Source of the DNA: Acidobacteriota bacterium
GTDB taxonomy: Bacteria; Acidobacteriota; Thermoanaerobaculia; Multivoradales; JBCCEF01
DNA: 64,000 nucleotides
Assembly (NCBI GenBank): GCA_039030395.1
Contig: JBCCEF010000015.1
Location: forward strand, 47,018 to 111,017
Direction: 5' to 3'
How positions within the stretch are numbered: position 1 is the first letter of the stretch; the number at the start of each line of letters is the position of its first letter. This document shows positions 42,100 to 50,920 of the stretch, in pieces. Below the pieces are notes generated by a model. The model was not told the origin of the DNA and ran no database searches. It was given only the letters and a program-made list of their open reading frames with translations. A program made the position numbers and the translations under genes.

Positions 42100-42245
42100 T
42101 CGCCATGATTTCAGCACGCCGGCTAGAGCTCATTTTCAGGGGGCTCGGCGCCCCCTCAGTCGAGAAGGCCAGCCTTCTCGACTTCACCCCATCCTCGGCA
42201 GCTTCGCTGCCGCCTCGCCCTGTGGGCTCGGAACCCGGGTGGTAC
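42100..42245 (+). repeat. Intergenic structured repeat, copy A (diverged, lacks terminal hairpin)
   Basis: Shares ATGATTTCAGC...TTTCAGGGGGCTCGGCGCCCCCTCA...CTTCACCCCATCCTCGGC...GCCGCCTCGCC...GGCTCGGAAC blocks with copies at 46205, 50752 (reverse) and 49191 (partial). Confidence 0.5.
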
Positions 42246-42292
42246 CATTCGTTGCCTCCCATCGCCACAGCATGTATTTCTCGGAGACCTAG

Positions 42293-43753
42293 ATGAGTTC
42301 CGAACACACCCTTCTCGTCGTCGACGACGAGGAGATGAACCGCGATCTCCTGTCGCGCCGACTGGAGCGCAAAGGCTACCGGGTGGCGGTCGCCAAGGGC
42401 GGGCAGGAAGCCCTCGACGCGGTCGCCGCACAGGACATCGACCTCATCCTGCTCGACATTATGATGCCGGGCATCGACGGTATCGAGGTGCTCAAGAGAC
42501 TGCGCCAGAGCCATTCCCAGACACAGTTGCCGATCATCATGGCGACCGCCAAGGGCGACAGCGAAGACGTCGTGCAGGCGCTCGAACTGGGAGCCAACGA
42601 CTACGTGGTCAAGCCGCTCGACTTCCCCATCGTGCTGGCTCGGGTGCAGGCTCAACTCCGCACCAAGGACAGCGCCTCCCAGGGGACCCCGGCGAGCGAC
42701 GAGCCGACCGCCGGCGAGATCGAACCGGGGGTGGTAGTGGCCGGAAAGTACCGGCTGGAGTCGCTCCTCGGCTCCGGCACCTTCGGCAGCGTGTTCCGCG
42801 CCCGGCACCTCGATCTCGATACCGACGTGGCCTTGAAGGTGTTGCGCACCGGCCTCGCATCGGACACCGAATCCCTCCGCCGCTTCCGCCAGGAGGGGGC
42901 CGCCGCCTGCCGCCTCAAGCACCCCAACGCGGTGGCGGTGCACGATTTCGCCGTCACCGAAACGGGGGTCGCTTACCTGGTGATGGAGCTGCTCGAAGGC
43001 TGTTCCCTCGACCGTGAGATCGGCGCCGGCCGAGCCCTATCGCCGCGCCGCTGCGCCGAGCTGATGGTGCCGATCTGCCACGCCCTGGCGGAAGCCCACG
43101 AAGCCGGTATGGTGCACCGCGATATCAAGCCCGCCAACATCTTTTTGCACCTTGAGAAGGGCCGTGAGGTGGTCAAGGTGCTGGACTTCGGAATCGCCAA
43201 GCTGATGGGCGAAACGGTGACCTCGCAGCAACTCACCCAGGACGGCATGTTGCTCGGCACCCCCACCTACATGGCCCCGGAGCGTCTCGAAAATCAGGAC
43301 TACGACGGCCGATCGGACGTCTACAGCCTGGGCGTCATGTTGTTCCAGATGCTCACCGGGAAGCTGCCCTTCGTCGCCAAGAAGGGCGACTTGATGGCGC
43401 TGATGATGCTCCACATCAAGGCACCGATTCCGTCCATCCGGGAGCACCGACCGGACCTCTCCGAAGAGCTGGCCGAGCTAGTGTCGCGCAGCCTTGCCAA
43501 GGCTGCCGCCGAGCGGCCGGACGCCGCCGGCCTGGCCCGCGAACTAGCGAGCGCCGTCGGCATCGTACAGAGCCCTCCGGAGCCCGAGGCACCGCGCCGC
43601 AAAGCCACCGGCAAGTCGCCCCTGGGAGAGCCGCAGAACACCGACGAGTTGCTCGCCGACCTGGCGCCCACGGTGGCCATCGACCAACCGCCCCGAGGGG
43701 GTCGAGGGGGTTGGTTCCGTCGCTTCTTCTCTTCCCGGGGATCGAAAGACTGA
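42293..43753 (+). CDS. Response-regulator receiver domain fused to a Hanks-type Ser/Thr protein kinase
   Basis: REC (LLVVDDEEMNRDLL...DLILLDIMMPGIDG...YVVKPLD) then kinase subdomains (GSGTFGSVFRA, ALKVL, HRDIKPANIFL, DFGIAK, APE). Confidence 0.85.
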   Translation: MSSEHTLLVVDDEEMNRDLLSRRLERKGYRVAVAKGGQEALDAVAAQDIDLILLDIMMPGIDGIEVLKRLRQSHSQTQLPIIMATAKGDSEDVVQALELGANDYVVKPLDFPIVLARVQAQLRTKDSASQGTPASDEPTAGEIEPGVVVAGKYRLESLLGSGTFGSVFRARHLDLDTDVALKVLRTGLASDTESLRRFRQEGAAACRLKHPNAVAVHDFAVTETGVAYLVMELLEGCSLDREIGAGRALSPRRCAELMVPICHALAEAHEAGMVHRDIKPANIFLHLEKGREVVKVLDFGIAKLMGETVTSQQLTQDGMLLGTPTYMAPERLENQDYDGRSDVYSLGVMLFQMLTGKLPFVAKKGDLMALMMLHIKAPIPSIREHRPDLSEELAELVSRSLAKAAAERPDAAGLARELASAVGIVQSPPEPEAPRRKATGKSPLGEPQNTDELLADLAPTVAIDQPPRGGRGGWFRRFFSSRGSKD

Positions 43754-49306: not shown

Positions 49307-50749
49307 ATGAACGAGCCACAAACTCCTACCGTTCAATTGTCTTTTCGACCGTCTCGCCTCGTAAGCTGTTCCCTGGCCGGGATTCTCGTCTCTCTCGGAG
49401 CACTGGCGCAGGAATGGCCCCAGTTTCGCGGCCAGGGCGCACGCGGCGTCGACGACTCCACTCCCCTGCCCGTTCGGTGGGACAGTGAGAGCGGCGAGGG
49501 CATCCTGTGGCGTACCGCCATCCCCGGCCTCGGCCATTCGAGCCCGGTGATCTGGGGCGACAAGGTGTTCCTCACCACCGCCGTCAGCGAGAAAGACGAC
49601 GCCGGAATCCGCACCGGCCTCTACGGCGACATCGACCCGGTGAAGGACGATTCGAGCCATCGCTTCGTCGTCTACTGCCTGGACCGCAACACCGGGGAAG
49701 TGCGGTGGCAGAAGACCGCCGTCGAGACGGTGCCGCAGGTCAAGAGGCACCTGAAGTCCACCCATGCCAACCCGACCGTCGCCACCGACGGCAAACACCT
49801 GGTGGCCTTCTTCGGGTCCGAAGGACTCTATGTCTACGACCTGAACGGCAACTTGTTGTGGAAGAAGAACCTCGGCCTGCTCGACTCCGGCTTCTTCTTG
49901 GTACCAAGCGCCCAGTGGGGTTTCGGTTCTTCGCCGGTGCTCGAAGCTGGGAGGATCATCGTGCAGGCAGATGTCCAGAAAGGATCCTTCCTCGCCGCAC
50001 TCGACGTGAAGGACGGCAAAGAACTTTGGCGGACTTCCCGCGACGAGGTACCCACCTGGTCCACCCCCACGGTGCATGACGACGGTCGCCGCAAGCAGGT
50101 GATCGTCAACGGCTTCCGCCACATCGGCGGCTACGATTTCAACACCGGCGCCGAGCTGTGGAGGATGGCCGGCACCGGCGACATCCCCACGCCGACGCCC
50201 TTCGTGGTGGACGATCTGATCTACCTCACCAGCTCTCACGGCGGCGGCAGCCCGATCTACGTTATCCCAACGAACGCCAGCGGGACCCTCGAGCCGGAAC
50301 AGCTCGCCTGGAGCCGCGAACGCGGTGGCTCCTACCTGCCCACCACCATTGTCTACGACGGTCTCTACTACGTCGGGCGGGACAACGGCGTATTGGGCGT
50401 GTACGACGCCAAGAGCGGCAAGCGGCACTACGAAGCCCGCGTCGGCGGCGGCAGCTACAGCTTTGTGGCCTCGCCGGTGGCCGGTGACGGCAAGCTCTAC
50501 TACTCCTCCGAAGACGGCGTGATCTTCGTTCTCGCCGCCGGCAAGGAACTGAACATCCTGGCCGAGAACGACATCGGCGGGCGCATCCTCGCCTCCCCGG
50601 CGATCGCCGACGGCACCCTCTACCTGCGCACCTTGAACGAGCTGGTGGCGGTGCGCGGAGCCGCCGCGCCGCCTCCGGCGGCCGGCGAGGAAGGCGACGA
50701 GGAAACCGGCGAAGGCGAGACGGACTCAGCCGAATCCGAGACCAAATAG
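49307..50749 (+). CDS. PQQ-like / BamB-like beta-propeller repeat protein with acidic C-terminal tail
   Basis: N-terminal signal. EWPQFRGQGARG start typical of PQQ-repeat propellers. Repeated hydrophobic-G-x-x-DG blades. C-terminal EEGDEETGEGETDSAESE tail. Confidence 0.7.
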   Translation: MNEPQTPTVQLSFRPSRLVSCSLAGILVSLGALAQEWPQFRGQGARGVDDSTPLPVRWDSESGEGILWRTAIPGLGHSSPVIWGDKVFLTTAVSEKDDAGIRTGLYGDIDPVKDDSSHRFVVYCLDRNTGEVRWQKTAVETVPQVKRHLKSTHANPTVATDGKHLVAFFGSEGLYVYDLNGNLLWKKNLGLLDSGFFLVPSAQWGFGSSPVLEAGRIIVQADVQKGSFLAALDVKDGKELWRTSRDEVPTWSTPTVHDDGRRKQVIVNGFRHIGGYDFNTGAELWRMAGTGDIPTPTPFVVDDLIYLTSSHGGGSPIYVIPTNASGTLEPEQLAWSRERGGSYLPTTIVYDGLYYVGRDNGVLGVYDAKSGKRHYEARVGGGSYSFVASPVAGDGKLYYSSEDGVIFVLAAGKELNILAENDIGGRILASPAIADGTLYLRTLNELVAVRGAAAPPPAAGEEGDEETGEGETDSAESETK

Positions 50750-50751
50750 GG

Positions 50752-50920
50752 CCCTAGCAGGGTGCTGATTAACTCGTCAGCACCCTGTTCCGAGCCTGAA
50801 AGGCGAGGCGGCGCCGTAGGCGTCGTGGACGGGGTGAGCCGGAAAACACTGGTGTTTTCGGGCGAGGGGGCGCCCAGCCCCCTGGAAAAGAAAGCTGGCA
50901 GGGCAGCTGAAATCATAGGC
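50752..50920 (-). repeat. Intergenic structured repeat, copy C (full length, reverse orientation)
   Basis: The reverse complement aligns along the full length of copy B (46205-46390), including ATGATTTCAGCTGCCCTGC, GGGGGCTGGGCGCCCCCTC, GCCGCCTCGCCTTTCAGGCTCGGAACAGGG and the terminal hairpin CAGGGTGCTGA/TCAGCACCCTG. Confidence 0.55.

Follow-up and report, generated by a model that had tools for sequence, protein, structure and literature searches.

The window, a 64-kb stretch of DNA from the metagenome-assembled genome (MAG) of an uncultured Acidobacteriota bacterium (GCA_039030395.1, contig JBCCEF010000015.1), carries a gene cluster that starts with multihaem cytochromes, a cNMP-binding 4Fe-4S protein, an FHA protein and an FAD oxidoreductase (FHA + 2Fe-2S), and ends with a fusion of a response regulator to a Ser/Thr kinase, a hybrid histidine kinase and a single-domain response regulator. 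The order and strand of these genes are kept in three Acidobacteriota contigs (window, 29129-46761; L054 of GCA_039028635.1, 1-12866; L055, 1-12723), and the cluster appears to be a redox-linked signalling module. Four copies of a repeat lie among the last genes of this cluster and those that follow it: three full copies, which we call A, B and D, and one truncated copy, C (Table 1). We interpret them, with a probability of about 0.88, as non-autonomous elements of ~195-215 bp, i.e., MITEs (transposable elements of the miniature inverted-repeat type), which bear the terminal inverted repeats (TIRs) of an ISAzs10-like clade of IS5-family insertion sequences (ISs).

A sequence-only reading of the window had proposed a family of structured, intergenic repeats at these four places, three of them near-identical and A diverged. 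Blastn searches with the units against the window recovered the family at each of them with e-values from 4e-46 to 1e-15 (B, taken as 46175-46400, versus D: 82% identity over 175 nt, E 4e-46; A versus B or D: 71% over ~160 nt, E 7e-18; C versus D: 87% over 60 nt, E 1e-15), and an nhmmer profile of the full copies matched exactly these four sites in the 64 kb to which our copy counts for the source genome apply. The loci therefore stand, whereas the extents do not, as the units begin ~25 nt further out; nor are the copies near-identical, the window copies being 67-82% identical in pairwise comparisons. For the family the range is 56-82%, with a divergence of 18-44%. The units, 195-217 bp in size, differ by indels of 2, 3 and 10 nt that break every reading frame, and they show no transposase homology, which bears out the proposal that they are non-coding. 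They are likewise intergenic, apart from the left CTAG in A and in B, which shares bases with the upstream gene's TAG stop codon. Both orientations occur: A and B run in the direction of the genes next to them, C and D antisense to theirs. Downstream of B an AGGAGG ribosome-binding site precedes the ATG (46402) of the single-domain response regulator, and D begins 4 nt past the stop codon of a gene for a PQQ-type β-propeller.

The copies are old. In A the right TIR is beyond recognition, although a CTAG at 42289-42292, which directly abuts the ATG of the response-regulator/Ser/Thr-kinase gene, may be its right-hand duplication. C has lost its left end and retains only the 3′ ~70 nt, where a conserved box is found together with the terminal hairpin and right TIR; its flanking tetranucleotide has decayed to CTGG. 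At least these two copies, each of which lacks one end, are fossils. The only public short-read contig that we found with the response-regulator gene, the 3.2-kb Logan contig SRR22824298_124094 (equivalent to window 46320-49558), starts inside copy B, as would be expected if the assembly had broken at a dispersed repeat; it also indicates that the same organism is present in that run.

Table 1. Positions of the repeat copies, their parts and the neighbouring genes (window coordinates unless a contig is named; HP, hairpin).
Feature	Position	Strand	Details
FAD-oxidoreductase/FHA/2Fe-2S gene	39713-42079	+	5′ of copy A
Copy A	42076 to ~42292	+	old, decayed; family similarity ends at 42234; nhmmer E 9e-53; covariance model 114 bits for core 42137-42232
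Copy A, left CTAG	42076-42079	+	holds TAG stop of FAD-oxidoreductase/FHA/2Fe-2S gene
Copy A, left TIR	42080-42095	+	CAGGCGGCCGAAAGAG
Response-regulator::Ser/Thr-kinase fusion gene	42293-43753	+	between copy A and histidine kinase
Hybrid histidine kinase gene	43753-46185	+	5′ of copy B
Copy B, full	46182-46388	+	nhmmer E 2e-55; covariance model 115 bits
Copy B, left CTAG	46182-46185	+	holds TAG stop of hybrid histidine kinase gene
Copy B, left TIR	46186-46201	+	
Copy B, HP2	46249-46267	+	AGGGGGC-ttggc-GCCCCCT
Copy B, HP3	46269-46294	+	ACCTGAAA...TTTCAGGT
Copy B, HP4	46307-46323	+	CGGCGCC-tac-GGCGCCG, 7 bp; 2 pairs changed on both sides
Copy B, HP4 and conserved box	46307-46343	+	box GCCGCCTCGCC-n5-GGCTCGGA, the most conserved stretch of the family
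Copy B, right TIR	46369-46384	+	
Copy B, right CTAG	46385-46388	+	
Single-domain response regulator gene	46402-46761	+	3′ of copy B
TPR lipoprotein gene		opposite	after response regulator; followed by two genes of unknown function, then copy C
Copy C, truncated	49190 to ~49262	-	nhmmer E 3e-9
Copy C, right TIR	49194-49209	-	CAGGGTGTTGAAAAAC as read on the + strand
PQQ-type β-propeller gene	49307-50749	+	between copies C and D; gene for a TPR protein after D
Copy D, full, inverted	50754-50947	-	nhmmer E 5e-54; covariance model 111 bits
Copy D, right CTAG	50754-50757	-	
Copy D, right TIR	50758-50773	-	
Copy D, left TIR	50928-50943	-	CAGGTTGCTGAAAAAG; 16/16 match to IS consensus
Copy D, left CTAG	50944-50947	-	
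Copy E, full	L054 16629-16838		GCA_039028635.1; nhmmer E 4e-47 (four-copy profile); core covariance model 47 bits
Copy F, decayed	L051 ~14732-14601		GCA_039028635.1; 3′ of stop of DksA-type gene

Intact copies share the layout CTAG, CAGGKTGCTGAAAAAG ... CTTTTTCAGCMCCTG, CTAG, such that the element opens with CAGG and closes with CCTG, the outer bases of its 16-nt TIRs, immediately inside the CTAG at either side. A 19-nt end pattern built on this arrangement has four matches in the window, versus 0.01 expected by chance. Copy D fits it without mismatches (its ends are CAGGTTGCTGAAAAAG and the inverse CAGGGTGCTGA), the TIRs of B have 2-4 mismatches, and those of the relative's copy E are near-perfect (CAGGCTGCTGAAAAAG and CAGGTTGCTGAAAAAT). 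B, D and E have CTAG on both flanks, and A may have it as well. The short direct repeats TCAGCnnCCCTGCyAG that had been noted at the ends are the right TIR and, internally, the left TIR copied in inverted form. The tetranucleotide CTAG is itself scarce: the window has 57 sites, where base composition predicts 208 and a Markov estimate 102. Nine of these sites belong to the repeat copies, leaving 48 others. In four of the six copies, namely A and B of the window and E and F of the relative, the CTAG at which the copy begins includes the upstream gene's TAG stop, and such a site would be a harmless target because the duplication would regenerate the stop. It is odd that all four of these copies share one orientation.

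The same ends delimit complete ISs. A scan of IMG/VR with the end pattern CTAGCAGGKTGCTGAAAA retrieved four contigs, three of which carry an adjacent IS5-family transposase gene. In one of them (IMGVR_UViG_3300006865_000035) positions 120-1447 form a complete IS of 1328 bp with the pattern at both ends, and its open reading frame (ORF) codes for a 377-aa protein with DUF772 and DDE_Tnp_1 domains that scores 291 bits against the NCBIfam model transpos_IS5_4 (cut-off 140). Our comparison set comprised 15 complete elements of this clade (1.29-1.40 kb), among them one annotated as 'IS5-like element ISAzs10 family transposase' on plasmid pAB510f of Azospirillum sp. B510 and, on the Bradyrhizobium ottawaense plasmid pBoOO86, an element of the IS5 family. 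Fourteen begin with CAGG-nn-GSKGAA (the fifteenth with GAGG) and finish with its inverse, and in 10 of the 15 the flanking tetranucleotides are identical, being CTAG, CTAA, TTAG or TTAA. Since these flanks are identical within an element yet variable between elements, the 4 bp represent a YTAR target duplication and the TIR starts at CAGG; IS5 itself duplicates a 4-bp target of the CTAG type (PMC10379815). The window family and the ISAzs10-like ISs agree in the 16-nt TIR CAGG-nn-GCTGAAAAAG (16/16 at the left end of D and 15-16/16 in E), in the 4-bp YTAR (here CTAG) that flanks the element at either end, and in a short, inverted, subterminal copy of the repeat's A-rich part. Its ends thus match those of IS5-type elements with a DDE_Tnp_1 transposase and come with the 4-bp YTAR duplication of that group. 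Unlike the 1.3-1.4 kb ISs, however, the window elements are ~200 bp long, lack a transposase gene and have an unrelated interior.

The nature of the ends also bears on the proposal, made in the sequence-only reading, that the repeats are REP-like. On this account the units would be repetitive extragenic palindromes (REPs) or bacterial interspersed mosaic elements (BIMEs), or palindrome-associated elements of the IS200/IS605 type, and a tyrosine (HUH) transposase, for example a RAYT, would move them in single-stranded form. REPs and BIMEs (PMC2817692, PMC3733652) are extragenic mosaics of palindromes with covarying stems that are associated with RAYT transposases, and the window units resemble them in being extragenic, in their palindrome mosaic and in their covarying stems; furthermore, they have like hairpins at both ends (HP1 and HP5, described below) and keep their pairing on both strands. 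Yet REPs are 20-40 nt long, bear a GTAG or CGTC tag and have no combination of TIR and duplication, whereas the units are ~200 bp long with five hairpins, and the foot of their terminal hairpin reads CTAG-CAGG without either tag (going by the criterion in PMC3733652). True inverted repeats that match a DDE-type IS5 element, together with a 4-bp duplication, are both foreign to IS200/IS605. No solo hairpins were detected elsewhere in the window, and no Y1 transposase was found among the genes scanned with Pfam, namely those around the repeats and in a low-G+C island. We regard movement by a tyrosine transposase as very improbable.

Comparisons with relatives show that A and B interrupt spacers that are otherwise short. 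We used the contigs that hold the closest homologues of the histidine kinase, L054 (70% identity) and L055 (54%). The spacer between the oxidoreductase gene and that of the response-regulator/kinase fusion measures 213 bp in the window, where it contains copy A, as against 41 bp in L054 and 73 bp in L055; the one between the histidine kinase and the response regulator measures 216 bp in the window, where it contains copy B, as against 43 bp and 5 bp, respectively. With short spacers in two outgroups, A and B are insertions in the lineage of the window and not conserved leaders. The kinase C-terminus, which reads ACVRQNR before the stop in the window (46165-46185) and ACVRPADQD in the 70%-identical orthologue (L054 12420-12445), diverges exactly where copy B begins, and the insertion may thus have taken the place of the final codons and brought the TAG stop with it. 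GCA_039028635.1 in turn has copies of its own elsewhere: the full copy E lies at a non-orthologous locus, where it begins at the TAG stop of a gene for a 576-aa protein without a Pfam hit and has CTAG on both sides, and the decayed copy F follows a DksA-type gene. These two were found in 43 kb of that genome, whereas six contigs of other relatives (~120 kb in total) held none. A covariance model of the core (R1), run over ~256 kb, recovered no copies besides A, B, D and E.

These relatives likewise speak to a simpler scenario, in which the copies arose by segmental duplication or rearrangement within the 9 kb, for instance of a unit made of a leader and a response regulator, with no transposition at all. 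Its appeal lies in the odd crowding of three and a half copies into 9 kb while the other 55 kb have none, and in the spacing of A and B (4111 bp), which is close to that of the receiver-domain genes that follow them (4100 bp). However, these two receiver-domain genes are old paralogues, 46% identical, and both are present in L054 and L055 without an element, which rules out duplication of a leader/response-regulator unit as the origin of A and B. Moreover, the copies cease to resemble each other precisely at the CTAG on either side, and their flanks are unrelated; the closest relative of B is D, which is inverted and lies beside unrelated genes; and GCA_039028635.1 has a full and a decayed copy at other loci. 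We consequently give a local duplication hardly any credence.

What emerges is a short non-coding unit with TIRs and a target duplication, present in dispersed copies with empty orthologous sites, and we favour the reading of it as a MITE, which was among those put forward in the sequence-only reading. Under this reading a DDE transposase of the ISAzs10-like clade, encoded elsewhere in the genome or formerly present there, would bind the 16-nt ends CAGGKTGCTGAAAAAG and mobilise the element in trans. The element would insert into YTAR, here CTAG, with the tetranucleotide being duplicated on both sides; CTAG is scarce in this genome of 65-70% G+C, and a CTAG that overlaps a stop codon would offer a harmless landing site. 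A and B would in this way have entered the conserved operon for the oxidoreductase, the response-regulator/kinase fusion, the histidine kinase and the response regulator, whose spacers they lengthen by ~170-210 nt of sequence that folds strongly.

Over half of prokaryotic genomes contain MITEs, ~90% of which are intergenic (PMC11602168). Several have ends of the IS5 family, including BrickBuilt, MITE293 and MITE700 of P. gingivalis (with the ends of ISPg1/3/4/9) and the Neisseria ATR (with those of ISNme1) (PMC4596501). The window family is like these in being short and non-coding and in having the TIR as its only link to an IS5-family element. In contrast, its TIRs and sequence are unrelated to theirs, its flank is fixed as CTAG where the duplications of BrickBuilt vary, and its interior has a fixed set of three hairpins in place of a minisatellite. 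We found no description of it in the literature on MITEs that we located, including that on MITEs of Acidobacteria; we regard the family as one more member of the known class of IS5-type MITEs.

The interior of the elements is elaborately structured. Each full copy folds more stably than its own shuffled versions (the z score is -5.7 in B, -3.8 in D and -2.5 in A), in line with the structure that had been predicted, and five hairpins can be drawn between the ends. HP1 pairs the left end with its internal inverted copy and encloses a small hairpin that covaries, HP5 pairs the right end with an internal copy of the end, and HP2-HP4 occupy the interior. The terminal hairpin that had been pointed out is present in D and C and takes a covarying form in B, but it is lost in A. 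HP2 corresponds to the internal palindrome GGGGGCTnGGCGCCCCC, which had also been noted; it is indeed invariant in A, B and D (none of its 7 pairs varies), whereas E and F have six G and six C where the window copies have five and five, a compensated indel. HP3, by contrast, keeps a stem of 9-11 bp in every full copy with sequences that are almost unrelated between copies (ACCTGAAA..TTTCAGGT in B, GCCCGAAAACAC..GTGTTTTCCGGC in D, AGTCGAGAAGGC..GCCTTCTCGACT in A and AGGCGCGCG..CGCGCGCCT in E); 7 of its 11 pairs have changed on both sides and 94% of the cells are paired. The box adjoining HP4 has the variant form GCTGCCTCGCC...GGACTCGG in E, and an unpaired C-rich block, TTCACCCCnTCCTCGGC, is conserved. 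Behind its first hairpin, each copy has a T-rich tract (CCTTTCTCTCTTT, CTTTCTTTTCC, AGCTCATTTTC and TCTATTTC). As consensus matches only, a simple terminator scan flagged short sub-hairpins in D (in the HP1 region), and copy B includes a σ70 promoter-like site, TTGCCG-16-TATGAT, with TATGAT at 46212-46217. Searches with the box as a pattern (GCCGCCTCGCC-n5-GGCTCGGA) gave 11 matches in GTDB species genomes and 38 in Joint Genome Institute (JGI) metagenomes, all of them chance matches confined to the pattern itself, and a scan of viral contigs for the C-rich block likewise gave chance matches only.

We counted covariation on a structure drawn by hand from the sequences themselves, over an ungapped alignment of A, B and D. 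Of its cells 92% are paired, and 13 of 59 pairs have changed on both sides, compared with 4.8 ± 1.7 in shuffles (none of 500 reached 13) and 0-1 in slid controls; HP3 accounts for seven of the 13. Drawn from three to five related sequences, these figures are descriptive and prove nothing. Still, neutral decay at 18-44% divergence does not account for the pairing. A one-sided G-U change occurs in a single pair, and mismatches in the stems show no preference for either strand; this scarcity of G-U intermediates and lack of strand bias fit a palindrome at the DNA level at least as well as an RNA. The palindromes could persist because formation of a hairpin or cruciform is selected for, or because template switching corrects them. 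The pairing may thus reflect selection, on RNA or on single-stranded DNA, or a correction of palindromes in the course of replication.

Such folding raises the question of whether the units are primarily functional structured RNAs of the signalling genes, acting as cis-regulatory leaders or attenuators, as a cassette of terminator and promoter or as genes for small RNAs, with the IS-like ends being incidental or a mere vehicle; conserved RNA leaders or terminators had indeed been among the earlier suggestions. The folding energies, the excess of double-sided changes, the upkeep of HP3 in four copies with hardly any common sequence, the conserved C-rich block, the promoter-like site of B, the T-rich tracts and the terminator-like matches of D are all what such a function would lead one to expect. 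Yet the units are missing from the orthologous operon junctions of two relatives, D and C are oriented against the genes beside them, and the genes that precede E and F have no obvious link to signalling. G-U pairs are distributed equally over the two strands with one intermediate, to which a DNA-level palindrome is better suited, and the hairpins at the ends are accounted for by transposase-binding repeats. Nor did any Rfam family match: Rfam 15 gave no match in the whole window at gathering thresholds, and at E ≤ 10 over 41900-51200 it gave a single irrelevant match of 18.8 bits inside a coding region. A primary role as regulatory RNA for these genes is therefore, in our estimation, distinctly improbable. 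A mixed possibility, which we think unlikely, is that the interior, with HP2, HP3, HP4 and the unpaired C-rich block, is a selected structured module, acting as RNA or as single-stranded DNA, that was spread by IS5-type ends; it may be a mobile terminator-plus-promoter cassette or a regulatory RNA. Were that so, the copies in the operon would have been co-opted to uncouple or tune the expression of the kinase and the response regulator.

The combination of inverted ends and internal hairpins has precedents. ERIC/IRU, Correia/NEMIS, RUP and BOX are repeats of 100-200 bp with inverted ends that lie between co-transcribed genes and form stable hairpins in the transcript; they can therefore alter mRNA processing or carry promoter-like hexamers, and Correia elements duplicate TA. 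The window family is close to these repeats in size and shares their inverted ends, hairpins and insertion between co-transcribed genes, although it has no sequence relation to them and no match in Rfam, which holds some such families. Structured MITE-like intergenic repeats of this kind in Proteobacteria and Firmicutes have been reviewed (PMC2229807).

Several observations count against the interpretation of the units as MITEs with IS5-type ends. Their similarity to the ISs does not extend beyond the terminal 20-49 nt, the elements that share these ends come from other hosts (Alphaproteobacteria and uncharacterised IMG/VR contigs), and tblastn searches found no transposase of the clade in the window or in any of the related loci fetched. 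The identity of 56-82% among copies leaves recent movement undocumented. Because the flank is always CTAG, the window by itself cannot distinguish a target duplication from a part of the repeat, for which the IS copies with their variable flanks are needed; and all four copies sit within 9 kb despite the 48 other CTAG sites of the window. Finally, cut-and-paste transposition by a DDE enzyme does not require covariation in the interior, which hints at something more.

The identification of the family explains four odd spacers of ~200 bp and one assembly break, and it cautions against annotating such spacers as riboswitch-like leaders. CTAG followed by CAGGKTGCTGAAAAAG provides a signature with which the family can be masked in Acidobacteriota MAGs. 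The locus further offers a case of MITEs splitting a conserved signalling operon, and a small, clean example of a CTAG-targeting element that persists in a high-G+C genome, presumably by landing on the CTAG of a TAG stop codon that the duplication would restore. The upkeep of its hairpins through double changes and a compensated indel makes it a test case for distinguishing selection from palindrome correction in mobile DNA.

Downstream of the operon, the propeller gene is bracketed by the truncated copy C and the full copy D, both in the same orientation. Homologues of the propeller that are 73-80% identical lie in unrelated neighbourhoods in seven other contigs, and the gene may have been relocated, possibly through recombination between MITE copies. 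As these neighbourhoods are not syntenic, they are uninformative as to empty sites for the C and D junctions. A perfect G+C-rich hairpin of 11 bp at 49026-49051 (GCCCGGGAGCC-tcac-GGCTCCCGGGC), 29 nt past the stop of an 84-aa ORF (48743-48997), has no T run after it and is unrelated to the MITE family.

On the other side of the signalling cluster, directly upstream of the multihaem cytochrome genes, the region 21220-28420 has a G+C content of 53-60% as against 64-70% elsewhere. No tRNA was detected in the window with Rfam. The region opens with a gene for a tyrosine (phage-type) integrase (21220-22599), followed by genes for a SAM methyltransferase, a TauD-like dioxygenase and, on the minus strand, a 1314-aa WD40-repeat protein, and it looks like an integrated island.

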